From a virus: a DNA stretch of 64,000 nucleotides. Shown here in pieces: positions 7,362 through 50,376 of the stretch (its first letter is position 1; each line of letters starts with the position of its first letter). The position numbers were made by a program, and so were the translations under genes. Where the stretch lies: the IMG/VR virus record IMGVR_UViG_3300032245_001170, positions 37,588 to 101,587 of that record, one strand, 5' to 3'. Under the pieces are notes generated by a model, which did no database searches, was not told where the DNA came from, and was given only the letters and a program-made list of their open reading frames with translations.

Positions 7362-8602
7362 TGGCAGCAGATAACGAAGTGCGACTCCTGTCCCGTGCAA
7401 TACGTACCAGAGACATTTCAGTTCTACTTGAAGCCGGAGTACAAGACGACTGGTTTTTTGTTGAAGAGAATAAAGCTGTTTGGAAGTTTATTCGTCAACA
7501 CTGGACCAGGTATCAAGAAGTGCCTACCGGAGTTACTGTATTAGATAACTTCCCTATGTATCGTTTACTTGCAGTAGACGACAACATTGATTATTTATTA
7601 GATCAGTTAATTGAATACCGCAAACGTCAAAGCACTATCTCAGTAGTTCAAGATGCATCAGAGGCAATTGCTTCGGGTGATCACAACACTGCTATTGCAG
7701 TACTTGGACAAGGCGTAGCAAAGTTACTTGATGAAGGTTCTCGGGAGAGCACTGACATTGATTTAACTAACAATGCCACTAAACGATTTGAAGAGTATCT
7801 AAATGTTAAGACTCGTCCAAATGGTTTACTAGGAATCGCTACCGGTTTTAAAACTATTGATCAAGCAACTGCGGGTTTACAGCCAGGTCAGTTAATTACA
7901 ATTATCGCTCCACCTAAGACAGGTAAGTCAGTACTTGCTTTGCAGGTAGCGGTTAATGTTCACAAAGATGGTTTCGTTCCTTTGTTCCAGTCTTTCGAGA
8001 TGAACAACATTGAGCAACAACATCGACACGATGCAATGCGTTCCCATATTGCTCACTCTCGGTTGATTCGCGGGGGCCTGACTAAAGAAGAAGAAGCTCG
8101 ATATCAAAAGGTTCTTGAAGAGATGGAGAGCATGCACAAGTTCTACTTAACAGATGCAGTATCTGCAATGACTGTTACAGGACTTGCTGCAAAGATCGAC
8201 AAGCTTCGTCCAGACATCGTATTTGTAGATGGTGTGTATTTGATGGTTGATGAGATTACTGGGGAGCAGAACAGCCCTCAGGCGTTAACTAATATAACTC
8301 GTGGCCTAAAGCAACTTGCTATGGCTAAGAAAATTCCTATTGTTATTTCTACTCAGGTTCTATTGTGGAAGATGAAGAAGCGCCAGGTATCAGCAGATGC
8401 AATTGGTTACTCATCATCTTTCTATCAAGACTCTGATGTAATTCTTGGATTGCAAAAGCAAGATGAAGAAGACGATACTTCCCGTGAACTACGTATCGTA
8501 GCAAGTCGTAATTGTGGGCCAGCATCAAGTGACCTGTTATGGGACTGGGAAGAAGGGAAGTTTGAAGAGTATGGATCTCTATTCGGAATCAGCACCATTT
8601 GA
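7361..8602 (+). CDS. dnaB: Replicative DNA helicase (DnaB-like)
   Basis: TGF..ID..T.GLQPGQL, PPKTGKS, SFEM, IVFVDG, QDSD motifs. Confidence 0.92.
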   Translation: MAADNEVRLLSRAIRTRDISVLLEAGVQDDWFFVEENKAVWKFIRQHWTRYQEVPTGVTVLDNFPMYRLLAVDDNIDYLLDQLIEYRKRQSTISVVQDASEAIASGDHNTAIAVLGQGVAKLLDEGSRESTDIDLTNNATKRFEEYLNVKTRPNGLLGIATGFKTIDQATAGLQPGQLITIIAPPKTGKSVLALQVAVNVHKDGFVPLFQSFEMNNIEQQHRHDAMRSHIAHSRLIRGGLTKEEEARYQKVLEEMESMHKFYLTDAVSAMTVTGLAAKIDKLRPDIVFVDGVYLMVDEITGEQNSPQALTNITRGLKQLAMAKKIPIVISTQVLLWKMKKRQVSADAIGYSSSFYQDSDVILGLQKQDEEDDTSRELRIVASRNCGPASSDLLWDWEEGKFEEYGSLFGISTI

Positions 8603-8825
8603 TGGGACTCAACTTTGCAAGTCTGTTGATCCAGATTTGTTTTTTCCTGAGGACTACACAGACCGTTTGAGCGTGATGAGCGCCAAAGCTGTGTGCCAGG
8701 GCTGTCCGCTAACCATTGCTTGTTTAGAGTATGCTATGTCAGATAGCAGTCTTGATGGTGTTTGGGGCGGAACTACCCCCCAAGAAAGAAAGAACCTAAG
8801 AAGACGGAAACGAGCCCTAGTATGA
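8571..8825 (+). CDS. whiB: WhiB-family transcription factor
   Basis: C..DPDLFFP..CxxCP...C..YA...GVWGG. Confidence 0.92.
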   Translation: MDLYSESAPFDGTQLCKSVDPDLFFPEDYTDRLSVMSAKAVCQGCPLTIACLEYAMSDSSLDGVWGGTTPQERKNLRRRKRALV

Positions 8826-18661: not shown

Positions 18662-18991
18662 ATGGAACATGACAATGAGCCTAGTTGGGCTTGGAGATAC
18701 GACGCTAAATGTCGAGGAGAAGATACAGAGATATTCTTTCCTCCGAGAGATAAGGCGTTATACAAACCTATAGCTAACAAAGCGAAAGCTATTTGTTGGG
18801 GGAAAGACGGTAGACCCGCTTGCCCGGTTAGGAAAAATTGCCTTAAAGAGGCTATCATTAACGATGAGTTGCATGGCATCTTTGGTGGAATGTCTCACCG
18901 AGAAAGAAATGCAGCAAAGCGTAAGTATGAAAAACAAGGTTTAACACTAGACGAATGGATAGAACAAGATGGCAAATACGGGCAAACCTAA
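18662..18991 (+). CDS. whiB: WhiB-family transcription factor (second copy)
   Basis: C...IFFP..C..CPV...C...GIFGG. Confidence 0.9.
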   Translation: MEHDNEPSWAWRYDAKCRGEDTEIFFPPRDKALYKPIANKAKAICWGKDGRPACPVRKNCLKEAIINDELHGIFGGMSHRERNAAKRKYEKQGLTLDEWIEQDGKYGQT

Positions 18992-35683: not shown

Positions 35684-37714
35684 TTGTTTTCTTTTAAATT
35701 AGCCGAAGACTTTGTAAACTCATATAAGACCAAGACAGTTCCTTGGGGATATGCAGACGCTGCCGGAAATAGCGTAGGTGAAATTACTTTCTTAAGAACA
35801 TACTCTCGTCTTAAAGAAGATGGAACCAAGGAGACTTGGGTTGAAGTATGCGAACGTGTAATCAATGGGATGTACTCTCTACAGAAAGACCACGCTAAAT
35901 CTCAAAGACTTCCTTGGTCTGATTCCAAGGCCGCGGCTTCTGCTAAGGAAGCTTATGATCGTTTGTTTAATTTGAAGTGGACTCCACCAGGACGTGGTCT
36001 ATGGGTAATGGGAACTTCAATTGTCAATGAGCAGAGGAACTCTGCTGCGCTACAGAATTGTGCTTTCGTTTCAACTATGGAAATGACAAAGCTCAACCCA
36101 GCAAAACCATTTGCTTTCTTAATGGAAGCATCCATGTTAGGTGTCGGAGTAGGGTTCGATGATAAGGGGGCTGACAAGGAATTCACAATCTATGAACCTA
36201 CCGAAGGAGATATATATGTCGTTCCAGACACCAGAGAAGGATGGGTCGAGTCAGTTACGGCCGTCATCAATGCCTACCTCAAGCCAGATAGCAAAACTCC
36301 AATATTTGATTACAAAGAGATCCGCCCATCAGGCACTCCGATCAAAACGTTTGGCGGAACAGCCGCGGGACACGAACCACTAGAGCGTCTACATAACTAT
36401 ATTCATAAATTGTTCGTAGGTCGTGGTGGAGAGAAGCTAACTCGTAAGGATATTGCCGATATAGGCAACCTCATCGGGGTTTGTGTTGTAAGCGGTAACG
36501 TACGTCGTTCTGCAGAACTACTTATTGGCCGTATTGATGATGAGGACTTTCTCAATTTAAAGAATGCTGATATTTACCCAGAACGCAACTCCTATGATCC
36601 AAAGAACCCGGGATGGGCTTGGATGTCTAACAACTCTGTTGAGGCAAAGGTAGGCTCTGATTTCTCTAAGATTATTGATGGCATTGTCCGCAATGGTGAG
36701 CCGGGAGTAGTCTGGATGGATGTATCCCGCAAGTACGGTCGTTTAATTGATCCACCTAACAATAAGGATTGGCGTGTTGCCGGATATAACCCATGTGCTG
36801 AACAAAGCCTTGAATCTTTTGAAATGTGTACCCTTGTAGAGACTTACTTGAACAGGCACGACTCCTTGGACGATTTTAAGCGCACCCTAAAGTTTGCCTA
36901 TCTATATGCCAAGACTGTGACCCTTCTCCCTACTCACTGGGAAGAGACCAACGCCATCATGCAGCGCAATCGCCGTATTGGTACCTCAATCTCAGGCATT
37001 GCCAACTTTGCAGACAACAACGGTTGGACTGTATTAAGGGACTGGTTGAATGAGGGATATGGTGTCGTAAAGGGTTACGACGATTCATACTCAGAGTGGT
37101 TGGGTGTTCGACCATCTATTAAAATGACAACTGTAAAGCCTTCCGGAACCGTATCTATCTTGGCAGGAGAATCACCTGGAGTTCATTGGGCTTCCGGAGG
37201 TAAGTTCTTTAATAGAGCAATTAGGTTTGCTAACTCTGATCCAATGCTGCCGCTATTCAAGATGGCAAACTACCGGGTAGAGCCAGCATCCGAATCACCG
37301 GATACAACCTCTGTTGTCTTCTTCCCTATCAAAACTGATGCTAAGCGAGCAGAGAAAGAAGTATCTGTACACGAAAAGGTAGCGCTTGCGGTTGTAACGC
37401 AACGCTATTGGTCAGATAACTCTGTATCTGTAACTGTAACCTTCGACCCTGAGAAGGAAGCGGACTCAATCGCTTCAATCCTTCACATGCACGACGGTCA
37501 GCTGAAGACTGTTTCGTTCTTGCCTATGGGCAACACTGTATACCCACAGATGCCTTACACTCAGATTACTGAGAGTGAGTATGAAGATGCCCGCATGAAG
37601 CTGTTCCCAATCGACTTTGCCGGAGTGTACGCAGGTATGGCGGCGGATGCAGTTGGCGAGGCGTATTGCACTACAGACGCTTGTGAAGTTAAGCTGATTA
37701 AAGATAATAAATAA
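35684..37714 (+). CDS. nrdJ: Class II (B12-dependent) ribonucleotide reductase, monomeric RTPR-type
   Basis: RTYSR, PPGRGLW, NCAF, GNVRRSA, NPCAEQ, VKPSGT, C-terminal CxxxxC. Confidence 0.93.
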   Translation: MFSFKLAEDFVNSYKTKTVPWGYADAAGNSVGEITFLRTYSRLKEDGTKETWVEVCERVINGMYSLQKDHAKSQRLPWSDSKAAASAKEAYDRLFNLKWTPPGRGLWVMGTSIVNEQRNSAALQNCAFVSTMEMTKLNPAKPFAFLMEASMLGVGVGFDDKGADKEFTIYEPTEGDIYVVPDTREGWVESVTAVINAYLKPDSKTPIFDYKEIRPSGTPIKTFGGTAAGHEPLERLHNYIHKLFVGRGGEKLTRKDIADIGNLIGVCVVSGNVRRSAELLIGRIDDEDFLNLKNADIYPERNSYDPKNPGWAWMSNNSVEAKVGSDFSKIIDGIVRNGEPGVVWMDVSRKYGRLIDPPNNKDWRVAGYNPCAEQSLESFEMCTLVETYLNRHDSLDDFKRTLKFAYLYAKTVTLLPTHWEETNAIMQRNRRIGTSISGIANFADNNGWTVLRDWLNEGYGVVKGYDDSYSEWLGVRPSIKMTTVKPSGTVSILAGESPGVHWASGGKFFNRAIRFANSDPMLPLFKMANYRVEPASESPDTTSVVFFPIKTDAKRAEKEVSVHEKVALAVVTQRYWSDNSVSVTVTFDPEKEADSIASILHMHDGQLKTVSFLPMGNTVYPQMPYTQITESEYEDARMKLFPIDFAGVYAGMAADAVGEAYCTTDACEVKLIKDNK

Positions 37715-40976: not shown

Positions 40977-42902
40977 CTAACGCATTCTCGAACGCTTTTT
41001 GATGGCACTTACTACGACCTGTTTAGCGAATGGAAGCAGGTCTTTAGCATCAGAGATTCTGGCAAATACTTCTGCTTTGTGGCGCAACTGTTCTTCATTG
41101 AGTTGGTTGTGCTCCTCTACATAGTATTTCCACTCTCTATCGTCCATGATTAGAGTCATGGCTGTCAAGATACCTCTGCGATTGATGCGTTCAATTAGAT
41201 CATCGTTTTTGTTTGTGTTGAACACACCATCAGTTACGATAAACAACATCTTATTCTTCTTACGAGAAGCCATAAGTAATTGTTCAGCAGCAAGCAGGGT
41301 TGGATACGGTTCTGTACCGCCACTGCCATAGATAAACTTGTACTCAGTCTTGTGTGCAAGTTCGTTACGGGTATACGCAATCTCGGCAGCATCATCAAAT
41401 GCATAGACTGTGACGGGAGCGTTGATATGTTCTAGTGCACGTTTGATAGTCCAGCAAGCAACAGATGCTTTCTGGTCATTGCGTCCACTAGACATGGAGC
41501 CAGAACGATCGACAAGGATAACTGCTTCAATATCACAGCCATCATCACCTTCATCCCAGCGGTCAAAGGCAGCATCAATCTCGCAACCTCTAATTACACG
41601 TTGCACATTGAGTCGACCAGTTGGTGTCTCTCTTTGCCACGTAGGTTCTGAGTCATCACGAAGTCTTTGTAATTCCCTAGCGAACTTACGATAGGAGATT
41701 ATTGCTTCTTGAGGAACTGCAGTGTTATGGAACTTGCCTCGTTTAGTTATGTCCTCATGCTTGCCATCTCCACCAACAATTACTCGTTGTTTGGTTCTGA
41801 CATCTGCTTGGACATCCTTGCGAGCCAATACATCATCGATTGCATTATTGAGCATGTCATTGATGCTATCGGGTAGTCCACCAAGACTAGGAGCATGTCC
41901 TTCACCGGCTGTTGCAGGAGTTTGGGTATCTACGTTTTGTTCACGTATACCCAAAGCTTGCTCAACAGAGGTTGGTGCGCTTCGTTGTGTCGGTGTCCCA
42001 TTACTTGTATTATCTGGCTTATTACTTCCGTCAGAGGATTCGGTTTGTGTTGGAGACGAGTTAGATGGTTGCGGTTGCTGTTTAGGTTTAGGTACGTAAG
42101 TAGATTCTTTTGTACCCATTCCTTTAGCACGTTCAGCATCTTTCTCCTGAGCCTTGCCTGGTTCGGGACGACCTTTAGATGTTGGTGAGCGTTCACCACA
42201 TTTGTTAGGGCCACCGTCCATGTTAGGAAGCATTCCCATAGGGATGCATACCTCGTTGTAGAATCGTTCTACTAGTTCTTTTGCTTTCTCGTATCCTTGT
42301 GGGAACGGAAGCAAACGATACTGATCAACGATGTCAATGATTGCTGGGATTAGCTCAGGGAAGGCAAACTCATCACGGAATGCTTGTCTAATCTCAACAG
42401 GTAGATAACGACGACCACGAATGCAGACATAGTTACCACTGATATCTTCTGATGCACCCAACCAACGAGCCACTGTGGCTGTTAGATATGGTGCAATAGA
42501 TGGATACCTACCTACTAGTAATGTTTCGATACGTTGATCCTCCAAGATATTAAACGCTTGGAAGTAATTGTTATCGATAATCCACTTGACTAGTTCTGTG
42601 CCTTTGCGAGGCGTATACAGGTGGTGGGCCAACTCGTGATAGTTGAGGCCGTTTACCTGTGTCAATGTTTCCAAGTCCATATCTTGAATCTCATTGAGAT
42701 TGATATAGATTGATGCACCATCAGACCACGCAGGTGCGGGGCCATCAGGAACAACATTGACTATGACTGGGTCGCCAGTTAGAACACGGTCCGCCTGTTC
42801 GTACACGCGGCATAATGCATTCAACCGAACTGAACGCTCTTGCGTTTCCTCGGTTCTGGCTTCTCCGTAATAACTATTGTCATTGAGTTCTTCAATTAAC
42901 AT
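40977..42902 (-). CDS. VWA-domain protein (CobT-like; N-terminal HExxH)
   Basis: HELAH, NILED.RIE, MIDAS DRSGS..GGT..TDG. Confidence 0.88.
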   Translation of the reverse strand: MLIEELNDNSYYGEARTEETQERSVRLNALCRVYEQADRVLTGDPVIVNVVPDGPAPAWSDGASIYINLNEIQDMDLETLTQVNGLNYHELAHHLYTPRKGTELVKWIIDNNYFQAFNILEDQRIETLLVGRYPSIAPYLTATVARWLGASEDISGNYVCIRGRRYLPVEIRQAFRDEFAFPELIPAIIDIVDQYRLLPFPQGYEKAKELVERFYNEVCIPMGMLPNMDGGPNKCGERSPTSKGRPEPGKAQEKDAERAKGMGTKESTYVPKPKQQPQPSNSSPTQTESSDGSNKPDNTSNGTPTQRSAPTSVEQALGIREQNVDTQTPATAGEGHAPSLGGLPDSINDMLNNAIDDVLARKDVQADVRTKQRVIVGGDGKHEDITKRGKFHNTAVPQEAIISYRKFARELQRLRDDSEPTWQRETPTGRLNVQRVIRGCEIDAAFDRWDEGDDGCDIEAVILVDRSGSMSSGRNDQKASVACWTIKRALEHINAPVTVYAFDDAAEIAYTRNELAHKTEYKFIYGSGGTEPYPTLLAAEQLLMASRKKNKMLFIVTDGVFNTNKNDDLIERINRRGILTAMTLIMDDREWKYYVEEHNQLNEEQLRHKAEVFARISDAKDLLPFAKQVVVSAIKKRSRMR

Positions 42903-42904
42903 AG

Positions 42905-44332
42905 TTATGCCAATTTAGATGCGTATTGACCAGCCCACGCTTTGAGTTGTTCTTCAGGAGATAGTCCTTCAGGCTCTTGCTCAACAACAATTGGGATTTC
43001 AATACCGAAATCAGTCTTGATGTTGTGTTCGTGTGTCTGGAATACCAATCTAACGCTTGCTGCTTCGTCAGGGCTGAAGTGAGCAATGAAGTTTTCCACT
43101 GCGAACTCATAGCCTAGAGCGTCAACAAAGTTAACGAACTCTTGAAGCATGTTAGTTGAGATTGGTGTTTCGTATTGACCTTTGTTAGCTTCAATACGTA
43201 GTTGTTTAGCAACGACCAACAATGCCTTAGATGAAACCAACTTAGCCTCGACCTTGTCATCATAATCCCAAGGGATTTGGATATCAAAGCGATTACGGAA
43301 GGCAAAGTTGAGCGGTGTTGTACCAATGTAATCTGGATTCATAGTAGCGAAGATAGTGAGGTCTTTGTGAGCCTCAATAGTTTCACCATGATGATCCAGC
43401 AATGTAATGGCACGACGACCGTCTAATAGTCCGTAAAGAACTGTGTAGATCTTAGGGCTGATGAAGTTAACCTCGTCGAGCAATAAGACACCACCATTAC
43501 GAACTACATCAGTGACAGGGCCATCAATCCAAGCAAATGAACCATTACCATCTGATACGAACTTACCAGTCATTTGACTAGGCTCCATAGAAGCATTGCC
43601 TGAGACTGTAGCCATACGTAAACCGCGTTCAGCAGCCCACGCTTCTACAGATGTGGTTTTACCTGGACCTGTTGGGCCATAGATTAGAACGTTGATGTTT
43701 TTGCTACGAGCATGATCAAAGATTTCAAAGTCCTCACGGGACCAGATATCTCTATGCACATAGCGTTTTGCTAGTTCAATCCGTGGCACTGATGCCAATG
43801 ATGCTTTAATCATTGGACCGCTAGATTCTGCAACTCTAATTGGAGTTGGTTCAATCGTTGCGGGTGCGGGCATTGTTTGTGTTGGCGCTGACACTAACGG
43901 AACAGGAGTTCCCGGCATACGGCGGTTGTCAATTACATGAGACTCAAGAGAATCATCACCAATACTTACCGCTTCGTAGATTTCGCATAAGCGTTCTACA
44001 AAGGACATAGTATCTGTGCTGATTGCTGCTTTAGTATGCGCTTGACATGCCTTGGTGCCGAGGACTGGGGAATAACCTTTGTCCGTCATAGCACGTTCAT
44101 CTGCTGATGTAACATATACAGCAACAGGTGTGCGTGTGAGCTTTTCGTCAGTACCTATCTGTCCTGTAATACTATCTAGGTCAGTTTCCTCCCACTTATT
44201 GTGAGGACCCTTTGTCCCATCAGTATCACGTGAATAGATTCGTACGTTACCATCATGTGGAGTGATAAGAACCTGGCGGCGCTTAGCCCCCATGGTTGGT
44301 TCGTACGACTCAGTGAATACAGCGATATCCAT
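42905..44332 (-). CDS. MoxR-family AAA+ ATPase (CobS/CbbQ-like)
   Basis: GPTGPGKT, W.DGP, LLDEVN, ATMNP.Y.GT..LN.AF.NRF. Confidence 0.9.
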   Translation of the reverse strand: MDIAVFTESYEPTMGAKRRQVLITPHDGNVRIYSRDTDGTKGPHNKWEETDLDSITGQIGTDEKLTRTPVAVYVTSADERAMTDKGYSPVLGTKACQAHTKAAISTDTMSFVERLCEIYEAVSIGDDSLESHVIDNRRMPGTPVPLVSAPTQTMPAPATIEPTPIRVAESSGPMIKASLASVPRIELAKRYVHRDIWSREDFEIFDHARSKNINVLIYGPTGPGKTTSVEAWAAERGLRMATVSGNASMEPSQMTGKFVSDGNGSFAWIDGPVTDVVRNGGVLLLDEVNFISPKIYTVLYGLLDGRRAITLLDHHGETIEAHKDLTIFATMNPDYIGTTPLNFAFRNRFDIQIPWDYDDKVEAKLVSSKALLVVAKQLRIEANKGQYETPISTNMLQEFVNFVDALGYEFAVENFIAHFSPDEAASVRLVFQTHEHNIKTDFGIEIPIVVEQEPEGLSPEEQLKAWAGQYASKLA

Positions 44333-46482: not shown

Positions 46483-46810
46483 GTTGGAGCAGAGGCACCA
46501 CCTCCCACGGTAATCCTGACTCTAGCCTCGGCACACGTGGGTTTCCCCGAGGTGTGCTGTCATAAGCAAACGCATTTAGTGTTTAGTGTTTTGAATGGCT
46601 GTATCGTCGGGAGTAGTTTCCCCATGGGATACCCAACGAGCCAGAGCACTTACTGTAGTACTGTGCATGACCAATCATTATGCCTCTGCCCAACGTGCCT
46701 GCATAGACGGCGAAATCTATACAGGCTCCATCACATTTGTATACCGCATGATGGTGCGGTCTTACGAAGGGCTAAGACTTCATAGCGTTGCAGTATGCCC
46801 TAGCCGTGCA
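46483..46810 (-). ncRNA. Putative structured intergenic RNA B
   Basis: Closing stem 46681-94/46483-97; internal GAAA-capped hairpins; further hairpins at 46697-778. Confidence 0.55.
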
Positions 46811-48356: not shown

Positions 48357-49028
48357 TTACATACCCTCCACATCTCGTAGAGCCTTCTGTAAAGCGTCTT
48401 GCTGTTCTTTGAGTGAAGCAATCTTTGCTTCTTTTATCTTCTCCTTAGCCGTTGCTAAGAATGAGGCGAGTTCAGTGCACTCAGACAGTTCTAGTCTGAT
48501 TGAACGACCAGCCTTGCTCACATCTACACTCATAGAGTGCTCGTTGACTTCGTATGACAATGGGTCGTCACACCAACCTGATGTTCTGGACATGGTTCCC
48601 TTTCTTGTTCTTGTTGTATTTAGGTAGTTGAATTTGTCAATCCAACAGGCAAAACTAGGGTCATAAGGCTCACCTGATTTAGATGTAAACCTAAAGGTGG
48701 CAAGCGTTTTGACTTTATAGTAGATGCCTGTTGCTTCGTCAAGGACATAGTCTGGCCAATACCAAGAGTGTTGTCGCCTGTCGAAGTTTTCATCGAACAA
48801 TGCTTCTTGCTTGCTGACTTCCCTGATGAAATAGAATTGATCGGGGTCGCTTCGCTTGCCACAATACATGTCGTATAGAATCCAAGAGCTATCTTTGTAA
48901 GTAACCTTGTCGGGATACTCCAAGATGTGATCACGATAGGCAATCCATTGCTTATCAGCACTCACCTTATGATTTTTATACCACCGCCTGTAAGATTGTT
49001 CAAGAGTCATAATGTCCTCAGTGGACAT
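48357..49028 (-). CDS. Hypothetical protein
   Basis: RBS AGAAGGGAG; 223 aa. Confidence 0.65.
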   Translation of the reverse strand: MSTEDIMTLEQSYRRWYKNHKVSADKQWIAYRDHILEYPDKVTYKDSSWILYDMYCGKRSDPDQFYFIREVSKQEALFDENFDRRQHSWYWPDYVLDEATGIYYKVKTLATFRFTSKSGEPYDPSFACWIDKFNYLNTTRTRKGTMSRTSGWCDDPLSYEVNEHSMSVDVSKAGRSIRLELSECTELASFLATAKEKIKEAKIASLKEQQDALQKALRDVEGM

Positions 49029-49147
49029 GTCTACTCCCTTCTAAAACAAGGCGGGAGAACAAGGAAGAAGTCGTCATACCCAAATTTGGCTCAGACTAAG
49101 TCTTGTTCTCCCACCTTATCCCCCTTCTCTGGGGTATCTACCTCGCC

Positions 49148-49431
49148 TTGAGATAGATAGAGAGCACACTGAATTACTGAAGGAATTGCGTGAGACTCAC
49201 AACCACAGCCCCTCTTGCGTTGCAGAACTACATACACAGCCTCTGTCGCGTCTATGACTATGCCTCTGCTCTTACTTAGGCAGGTAACTATCTCCCTGCG
49301 GGTGCCTCGGCACCTAAGTCCGTACTGTTTCGCTTCTTCACGCCCCCTCTATGATAATAGTTACACTCACATAGAATCCTCGTTCTCGGTGCAATCAACA
49401 GCCTATTCAGTGTGCCCTCTGTCCATCTCAA
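49148..49431 (-). ncRNA. Putative structured intergenic RNA C
   Basis: 27-nt terminal inverted repeat 49148-74/49405-31; internal three-way junction. Confidence 0.65.
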
Positions 49432-49455
49432 ACTTCGCGGGGAAGGATTGGTGTA

Positions 49456-49596
49456 TTACTTACAATTAGTGCAATAGTTAGTTGCCCTAATGTTCTTAAT
49501 GTGGACGCGGTAAGGCTGTCCACAGTGATGACATACAACATCAGTCATCTCTTTCTTTTTGCGGGTAATGCCTATCTTGATAGATAGTGTGAACAT
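49456..49596 (-). CDS. 46-aa Zn-ribbon peptide
   Basis: RBS GAAAGGA; CHHC..CTNC. Confidence 0.55.
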   Translation of the reverse strand: MFTLSIKIGITRKKKEMTDVVCHHCGQPYRVHIKNIRATNYCTNCK

Positions 49597-49626
49597 AACG
49601 ATCCTTTCATACTGATTGTTGGAAAT

Positions 49627-49884
49627 TTACTGTCTACCTGATGACCTACCATCTAATAGATGGGGGGAGTCTGCTTCCACGTAGGTAAAGCCTTGCTTAG
49701 GAACTAGGATAAGACGATACTGCTCTTGTCTGCTCCGTAGTTCATGGGCACAGATAGGATTGAAGCAATAGTGATAGCCTGCTTCCCATCTGGCTTGTAA
49801 CACAGGCTGTCCGCAATAGATACAAGACAGAGCATTATCTAATGCTTCTAGACAAGGCTCTGAATCACAACATTGACACTTCAT
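49627..49884 (-). CDS. Cys-rich small protein
   Basis: RBS AGAAAGG before MKCQCC; CIYC, C...C. Confidence 0.55.
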   Translation of the reverse strand: MKCQCCDSEPCLEALDNALSCIYCGQPVLQARWEAGYHYCFNPICAHELRSRQEQYRLILVPKQGFTYVEADSPHLLDGRSSGRQ

Positions 49885-50376
49885 AACTAGCCTTTCTAAT
49901 AGAAACACGGGATTATCTTTACGCAAGCACATTGCAACCCGTGTCTATCCTTGTGTAAATACTCTCAGATAGAGAGTGAGAGATACATAGGCTCAGGACT
50001 GTAATAGTCTCTGCGTTTAAGTCGTAAACACCTATGTATCTTCCACAACCTACCTGATAACAGCCATACACCATAGTCGTAGACCTGGTGTGTCTCCCAA
50101 TGCTCATAGTTAGATAATTAGCAGTAGCCAATTCTCTATGATGAGAGATGTATCACATTGTGAGATGAGAAAGCCCTAGCCGAACTTTGAAGGGGACGGC
50201 TAGGGCTTCTCGATAGACAGAAGACACGACAGCAGCAGACTAGACTCGGGGGAGAAAGCAGGTTCCCTATGGCTACGAACCAATAGGGCTTTATCCACTC
50301 CCCATCTACGCCCATAGATACTATGGACATAGAAAGGAAGTGGGCGGGGGTTTCCCCCCACCCACTAACTATCTAA

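Follow-up and report, generated by a model that had tools for sequence, protein, structure and literature searches.

A conserved structured RNA family, closed by a long helix, in the early-gene arm of freshwater actinophages

The locus described here lies in a 101,587-bp virus genome from IMG/VR, rated 100% complete by CheckV, of which bases 37588-101587 were analysed as one stretch of 64 kb (hereafter the window, to which coordinates refer). The gene set comprises a T4-type large terminase, an SPP1-type portal and a family A DNA polymerase, indicating a tailed phage, and additionally a class II ribonucleotide reductase and an AAA_5 and VWA pair. Because the window carries two WhiB-family genes on the plus strand (8514-8825 and 18662-18991; PF02467, 67 and 64 bits) and TerL shares 52% identity with the terminase of Streptomyces phage BRock, the host is probably an actinobacterium. 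Sequencing runs in which this DNA occurs come from freshwater, aquaculture or other aquatic metagenomes. No tRNA genes occur in the window, and no RNase III gene was found in the phage's own genome. The AAA_5 ATPase (475 aa) and the VWA-domain protein (641 aa) are encoded on the minus strand at 40977-44332 and resemble a CobS/CobT-like or MoxR-like pair; the class II (B12-dependent) ribonucleotide reductase is encoded in the same arm, at 35684-37714. The element under study, RNA C, is located in a minus-strand early arm of small ORFs that have no usable Pfam or PHROG match, between a 46-aa zinc-finger-like ORF and a 223-aa ORF. Its features and those of its flanks are listed below in the 5' to 3' order of the RNA, each with the evidence that defines it.

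49433-49459, minus strand: 5' flank, consisting of a small hairpin whose conserved loop is GUAAUACAC (which includes the UAA of the upstream ORF) and then a mini-hairpin CUUC-CCCGC-GAAG (alignments and folds)
49405-49431, minus strand: P1 5' arm, 27 nt (in helix 1, P1 plus P2, 18/31 pairs change on both sides)
49384-49402, minus strand: 5' strands of P2 (GCUG), P3 (GAUUGC) and P4 (GAGA), the rod extension (covariation in L063-65, L069 and L006)
49340-49383, minus strand: P5 (ACG/CGU) and the P6 hairpin (UCUAUG/CAUAGA) (compensatory pairs, 2/3 in P5 and 3/6 in P6)
49357-49366, minus strand: P6 loop GUGUAACUAU, the 5' strand of the pseudoknot (duplex comparison)
49320-49339, minus strand: unpaired purine-rich joiner GAAGAAGCGAAACAGUACGG (invariant or near-invariant alignment columns)
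49274-49319, minus strand: P7 domain, with the outer stem ACUUAGG/CCUAAGU, a short P7a, P7b and a pseudoknot strand (3/7 pairs of P7 compensatory)
49294-49302, minus strand: P7b mini-hairpin CCC-GCA-GGG (3/3 pairs compensatory)
49284-49291, minus strand: 3' strand of the pseudoknot, AUAGUUAC, inside P7 (complementary to the P6 loop)
49222-49269, minus strand: P8, a variable arm (6/6 pairs of the inner stem compensatory)
49242-49255, minus strand: 14-nt apical loop of P8, containing the quasi-palindrome GACGCGAC (loop comparison)
49197-49220, minus strand: conserved joiner ACGCAAGAGGGGCUGUGG..., with no established pairing partner (alignments)
49176-49195, minus strand: 3' strands of P4, P3 and P2 (RNAalifold and pair counts)
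49148-49174, minus strand: P1 3' arm, 27 nt (inverted repeat and pair counts)
49135-49159, minus strand: alternative 3' hairpin UAUCUAUCUC-AAGGC-GAGGUAGAUA, which uses the outer 10 nt of the P1 3' arm as its 5' strand
49048-49117, minus strand: 16-bp hairpin followed by GUUUU, terminator-like (stem 49048-63/49102-17, 94% complementary)
48357-49028, minus strand: downstream ORF, 223 aa, without Pfam or PHROG match and swapped for other genes in relatives

The element is delimited by a 27-nt inverted repeat whose arms (49148-49174 and 49405-49431) are 89% complementary as DNA, lie 230 nt apart and rank best among the long-range inverted repeats of the window; by our own binomial estimate, the chance expectation for such a repeat is below 1e-4. 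Read as minus-strand RNA, the arms form 24 Watson-Crick pairs, 2 G-U pairs and 1 C.A mismatch, in exact agreement with the original prediction of a 27-bp closing stem with two G-U pairs and one mismatch. The 284-nt element folds with -106.1 kcal/mol on the minus strand (z = -4.5, compared with -3.5 for the plus strand). Across relatives P1 is 19-27 bp long and is stacked on P2-P4, and in L069 and L006 the sequence of its arms has been rewritten with the pairing kept. The helix reaches the length of an RNase III substrate (about two helical turns, at least 20 bp, of mostly regular double-stranded RNA). One or two fixed mismatches are frequent (C.A at bp 11, G.G at bp 15) and P1 of L006 is only about 19 bp long, features from which recognition of P1 by RNase III in the host cannot be judged.

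Viral and metagenome contigs were scanned for homologues with protein anchors and DNA patterns and then with nhmmer, which is adequate at the divergence of these sequences; the homologues were compared in three alignments (A2, A3 and A4). The scans yielded 21 distinct homologues, two of which (L006 and L069) are divergent; L067 and L068, recovered by a gapped pattern scan, were chance matches and were dropped. L009 was also rejected, as its syntenic early-arm gap holds a different structured sequence: in this distant relative the matching gap (L009:5450-5810) is GC-rich, dissimilar to RNA C and ends in the motif CCAACACAAACAA. Indels of 1, 2, 8 and 13 nt separate the homologues, which excludes a coding role for RNA C. 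A DNA search of GenBank phages with a 2.1-kb query in distant mode gave no match, and neither did a pattern scan of genomes of 185,579 bacterial and archaeal species, which hence offered no prophage copy and no clue to the host. Likewise, the whole window had no match in Rfam 15 at gathering thresholds, and with E up to 10 the region 48950-49650 returned only chance miRNA and snoRNA matches on the 16-bp hairpin. Our bioinformatics analyses indicate that RNA C is a conserved structured RNA family of ~300-330 nt that matches no Rfam family and lies on the transcribed strand of the early-gene arm in ~100-kb freshwater actinophages.

The secondary structure was derived with RNAalifold on alignment A2 and from pair counts on a curated structure, and the two agree. 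Both point to a fold in which a rod, P1-P4 (P1 27 bp), carries a branched head made of P5/P6, the P7 domain and the variable arm P8. In alignment A4, 92.8% of cells are in standard pairs; the value falls to 84.3% in shuffles and to 33-43% once partners are displaced by 1-3 columns. None of 500 shuffles reaches any of the five measures used. Compensatory changes on both sides occur at 46 of the 79 proposed pairs, so that the check on homologue covariation strongly supports a discrete, structured minus-strand RNA with a long closing helix. The invariant G-U pair of P2 and the frequent G-U pairs of P1 are compatible with the minus strand only, which makes this the functional strand. The rod continues beyond P1 through P2 (GCUG/CAGU), P3 (GAUUGC/GCAAUU) and P4 (GAGA/UCUC), and much of P1-P3 is rewritten and still paired in L069 and L006. 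A local hairpin, GUGA-GUC-UCAC, was considered in place of P4 and was ruled out by L006, in which P4 is kept and the hairpin broken.

Within the head, the P6 loop and a strand inside P7 pair in a pseudoknot that locks the head. Three unrelated versions of this pair of strands exist and all are complementary (GUAACUAU/AUAGUUAC, GGAGGCUA/UAGUCCUCC and GAGUUUAG/CUAAAUUC), with a mean duplex energy of -11.9 kcal/mol compared with -6.7 (sd 0.5) for shuffled partners. The P7b mini-hairpin next to it occurs as CCC/GGG, CGG/CCG, CAG/CUG, CUC/GAG and UCC/GGA. Around these helices, ~45 nt of unpaired sequence are near-invariant, comprising GAAGAAGCGAAACAGUACGG and ACGCAAGAGGGG.... This arrangement modifies the clean three-way junction that had been proposed for the interior: all three of its stems exist in the window sequence, and one of them is replaced by a 3-bp hairpin and a pseudoknot strand. 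The stem ACUUAG(G)/(C)CUAAGU is supported by the relatives and GGUGC/GCACC is mostly kept in them, whereas GCAGG/CCUGC forms 5/5 pairs only in the window and 1-4/5 in relatives, its sequence being occupied instead by P7b and the pseudoknot strand.

The apical loop of P8 varies in a particular manner. Aligned in register, it reads GACGCGAC, GUCAUGAC, UUCUAGAC or GUUGCAAC, and its central four bases, where present, are a palindrome in each case (CGCG, CAUG, CUAG or UGCA). As loop bases 4 and 5 are adjacent, no pairing is possible within a single loop, and shuffled loops contain shorter palindromes (p about 0.002). In L012 and L008, whose P8 is short, the loop is A-rich and the palindrome absent, so the feature is not universal, and the independent palindrome types number only four. 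In OLE and GOLLD, whose symmetric intermolecular kissing loops were visualized by cryo-EM, switching among the palindromes GGCC, GAUC and AGCU was taken as evolutionary support for those contacts (Kretsch et al., PMC12286853, section 8). The switching in P8 points to a comparable symmetric kissing dimer. A pairing of the leader with the P8 loop via CGCG was discarded, as the loop varies and the leader is constant.

The flanks of RNA C are also structured. Most relatives conserve the 5' flank, some have it in duplicate, and L069 and L006 lack it; tandem copies of its C-rich mini-hairpin motif UUCCCCGCGAA occur in a single sub-lineage (L045, L017, L016, L023, L028 and L039). Two shared upstream motifs, TTCCCCGCGAA and GTAATACAC, were considered as a promoter, and their repeats in the window are not above chance; a sigma-70 scan likewise gave nothing near RNA C. 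On the 3' side, the alternative hairpin is present in 21/21 homologues in at least seven compensated sequence versions, with a mean of -10.8 kcal/mol compared with -3.2 kcal/mol for shuffles, and in none of them can it coexist with the outer ~10 bp of P1. Constrained folding favours the full P1 by 0.6-11.8 kcal/mol (mean 5.8), the gap being only 0.6-2.4 kcal/mol in several members. This competition between the outer part of P1 and the 3' hairpin is explained equally well by a cis-acting switch and by refolding after cleavage.

Further downstream, the sequence differs between lineages. The separate 16-bp stem noted in the original prediction is present and 94% complementary; it proved to be a lineage-specific expansion (the window and L023) of a shorter GC hairpin with a U-run found in about half of the relatives, so that some relatives carry the shorter terminator-like hairpin and others nothing. 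In L008, L007, L012 and L006 the ribosome-binding site of the next ORF follows within a few bases of the 3' hairpin, and L069 has a Shine-Dalgarno-like run inside the loop of this hairpin. In L045, L039, L044 and L017, the next ORF has no Shine-Dalgarno sequence, and its ATG directly follows a GC hairpin and U-run (..CCUCCCGCUUUAUUUUUU). Leaderless starts are common in actinobacteria, and this arrangement may represent a terminator followed by a leaderless start.

The genes around RNA C are less constant than the RNA itself. Across phages, the ORF downstream comes from at least four unrelated families, all without Pfam or PHROG match, the upstream 46-aa ORF is found only in some phages, and RNA C is better conserved than the surrounding proteins (flanking proteins are about 40-90% identical). 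The 223-aa ORF is a neighbour rather than a fixed partner of RNA C, and the variation of the neighbouring genes between phages makes a gene-specific riboswitch unlikely. Other gaps of the same arm are structured as well. RNA B (46483-46810, minus strand) is conserved in at least eight relatives, has a closing helix (GGGCAGAGGCA / UGCCUCUG.CC) that covaries within itself, and is followed after its 3' arm by the motif CCAACACAAACAA in nearly all of those relatives. A trans pairing between the 3' arm of RNA B and GAGCAGAGGCA in RNA C was rejected, as this arm covaries with its own 5' arm; the pairing is also contradicted by L004-type phages, in which the RNA C segment has changed and RNA B shows no corresponding change. 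Two further long, imperfect inverted repeats occupy the gaps that come next in the early arm, also on the minus strand, at 49965-50057 (27 nt, 78%) and 50157-50305 (22 nt, 77%), and a 12-bp GC hairpin with a U-rich tail lies at 50339-50366.

With respect to expression, two contigs of a freshwater RNA-seq library (X20) are both confined to the interior of RNA C: one matches 49171-49343 with 100% identity, and the other derives from a relative that has the second version of the pseudoknot. Nothing in this library, which consists of low-depth assembled contigs from one run, falls on the 2 kb of genes that flank RNA C. These contigs are a weak hint of expression. Both end at 49171, where the inverted repeat breaks the assembly, and a DNA run breaks there too. 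Two other RNA runs, X18 and X19, cover only other parts of the stretch and have no bearing on expression of RNA C.

The fold of RNA C is well supported, and we infer a mechanism towards which we lean, with some reserve, over the alternatives below: RNA C would be excised at P1 from an early transcript, probably by host RNase III, and would then act in trans. RNA C would be transcribed within a polycistronic early transcript and cut within P1 by a double-strand-specific nuclease, most likely RNase III of the host, which is the obvious enzyme because the phage itself encodes no RNase III. The cut would give the downstream mRNA a new 5' end that would refold into the 3' hairpin, and the freed RNA C, possibly in the form of a symmetric dimer held by the P8 kissing loop, would act on a factor of the host or the phage. 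More tentatively, and with appreciable doubt, RNA C may represent a new class of "ornate" phage RNA that is excised by RNase III, dimerizes through a palindromic kissing loop and acts in trans early in the infection of freshwater actinobacteria. Possible roles for such an RNA include a decoy or inhibitor of RNA polymerase, of a ribonuclease, of the ribosome or of an RNA-sensing defence, or a catalytic or ligand-binding RNA.

Excision is not the only way to account for a helix that competes with a downstream hairpin. RNA C could instead be a cis-acting switch, i.e. a riboswitch or a protein- or temperature-responsive leader, in which a signal at the head stabilises or releases the outer part of P1 and the 3' hairpin, lying near a Shine-Dalgarno sequence or terminator, sets translation of or read-through into the downstream gene. 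The exclusivity of the two helices even in the most divergent of the 21 homologues would fit such a device, as would the small energy gap in several members, the ribosome-binding sites close behind the 3' hairpin (L008, L007, L012 and L006), the Shine-Dalgarno-like run in the L069 loop and the complex pseudoknotted head, whose conserved unpaired purines are aptamer-like. Yet the gene that would be regulated belongs to at least four unrelated families, a separate terminator with its U-run stands between RNA C and the next gene in about half of the lineages, P1 forms co-transcriptionally ahead of the competitor strand and has a mean advantage of 5.8 kcal/mol, and a search at E up to 10 still gave no match to a known riboswitch model; we consider a cis switch unlikely. 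It is also conceivable that the rod is a bare module for mRNA processing and stability, in other words a site where RNase III divides the early transcript, with flanking hairpins that protect the new ends and an excised piece that has no function. A long near-perfect helix between genes of one operon, the hairpins on both flanks and the other conserved structured gaps of the arm, such as RNA B with its covarying closing helix, agree with this proposal, and the arrangement parallels the well-established RNase III sites of T7 early mRNA. However, a processing stem needs no 230-nt head, and this head has a covarying pseudoknot, a P7b with 3/3 pairs compensated and ~45 nt of near-invariant unpaired sequence, a constraint exceeding that on the flanking proteins (about 40-90% identical), so that this proposal ranks below the cis switch and seems to us improbable.

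The long terminal repeats also invite readings that do not involve a processed transcript. The original prediction saw in them a resemblance to the a1/a2 repeats of retrons, which would make RNA C an msr-msd-like RNA that is reverse-transcribed; terminal inverted repeats around a structured RNA and a 27-bp helix do fit this feature, which is not specific to retrons. The resemblance did not hold up: a search of the complete genome, all 101.6 kb of it, with RVT_1 (PF00078) at E up to 1 detected its controls and gave no match, so the earlier remark that the window lacks a reverse transcriptase extends to the whole genome. In addition, no Rfam retron family matches and the neighbours are small ORFs without Pfam or PHROG match, which leaves a retron-like RNA the least probable of all the readings. 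Scarcely more credible is a DNA-level element, either a MITE-like insertion or an inverted repeat bound by protein, such as an origin or operator, for which the 27-bp terminal inverted repeats, the MITE-like length of 284 bp and the P8 loop palindromes, readable as DNA sites, could be cited. A MITE-like insertion with target-site duplication had been named as what would overturn the RNA reading, and none was found: the element is single-copy, genome matches being RNA C itself and its own arms, the flanks (..GAAGT / GGCGA..) contain no direct repeat and conservation runs past the repeats. Moreover, most relatives have it at the same position of the early arm, with no empty site where the flanks are recognisable; the internal helices and the pseudoknot covary and include G-U pairs, which the opposite strand would show as A.C, and sites bound by protein would keep their sequence rather than switch palindromes.

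Large intricate RNAs without known function are rare, and several of them were found to form RNA-only cages and dimers; RNA C is compact (~300 nt) and combines a well-determined fold with a pseudoknot and a candidate dimer loop, which makes it suited to probing and cryo-EM. The phages that carry it probably infect abundant, hard-to-culture lake actinobacteria, the early-infection biology of which is almost unknown, and the presence of at least one further conserved structured RNA in the early arm suggests an unusually heavy reliance on RNA structure early on. If the rod is an RNase III site, RNA C would be a clear case outside rRNA of a functional RNA freed from an operon by a cut in flanking stems.

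Several known systems share part of this architecture. Stems processed by RNase III include the helices that flank 16S and 23S rRNA in bacterial rRNA operons and sites R0.3-R1.3 of the phage T7 early mRNA, the latter being simple ~60-nt hairpins without cargo. RNA C resembles these in the long helix formed from both sides of a structured RNA within a polycistronic transcript and in the hairpins at the new ends of its neighbours; in contrast, its cargo is a 230-nt pseudoknotted domain rather than rRNA, and its cleavage is a predicted one. Riboswitches with an expression platform that competes with P1 likewise have a P1-closed domain in which the 3' strand of P1 can pair with a segment beside a ribosome-binding site or terminator, whereas P1 of RNA C is 27 bp rather than 4-8 bp, the downstream gene is inconstant, the context suggests no ligand class and no aptamer model matches. 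The msr-msd RNA of retrons has terminal inverted repeats similar to those of RNA C, which differs in a genome without reverse transcriptase and in a multi-helix pseudoknotted interior in place of the single long hairpin of the msd type. 6S RNA and actinobacterial Ms1 are RNA polymerase-binding RNAs; RNA C is close to Ms1 in size (~300 nt), has ends paired into a rod and comes from an actinobacterial setting, yet it is branched and pseudoknotted, has no central bubble resembling an open promoter and matches no Rfam model at E up to 10. GOLLD, ROOL and OLE (Rfam families; cryo-EM in PMC12286853) differ from RNA C in sequence, with no sequence or model match, in size (580-800 nt or more compared with ~300 nt) and in setting, since RNA C does not lie near tRNA islands but within an early operon, where it is bounded by its closing rod and the hairpin that competes with it. 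Like these RNAs, RNA C is phage-encoded, elaborate and pseudoknotted and has no known protein partner, and its apical-loop palindrome switches to other palindromes, the pattern taken in that work as a mark of symmetric kissing loops between molecules.
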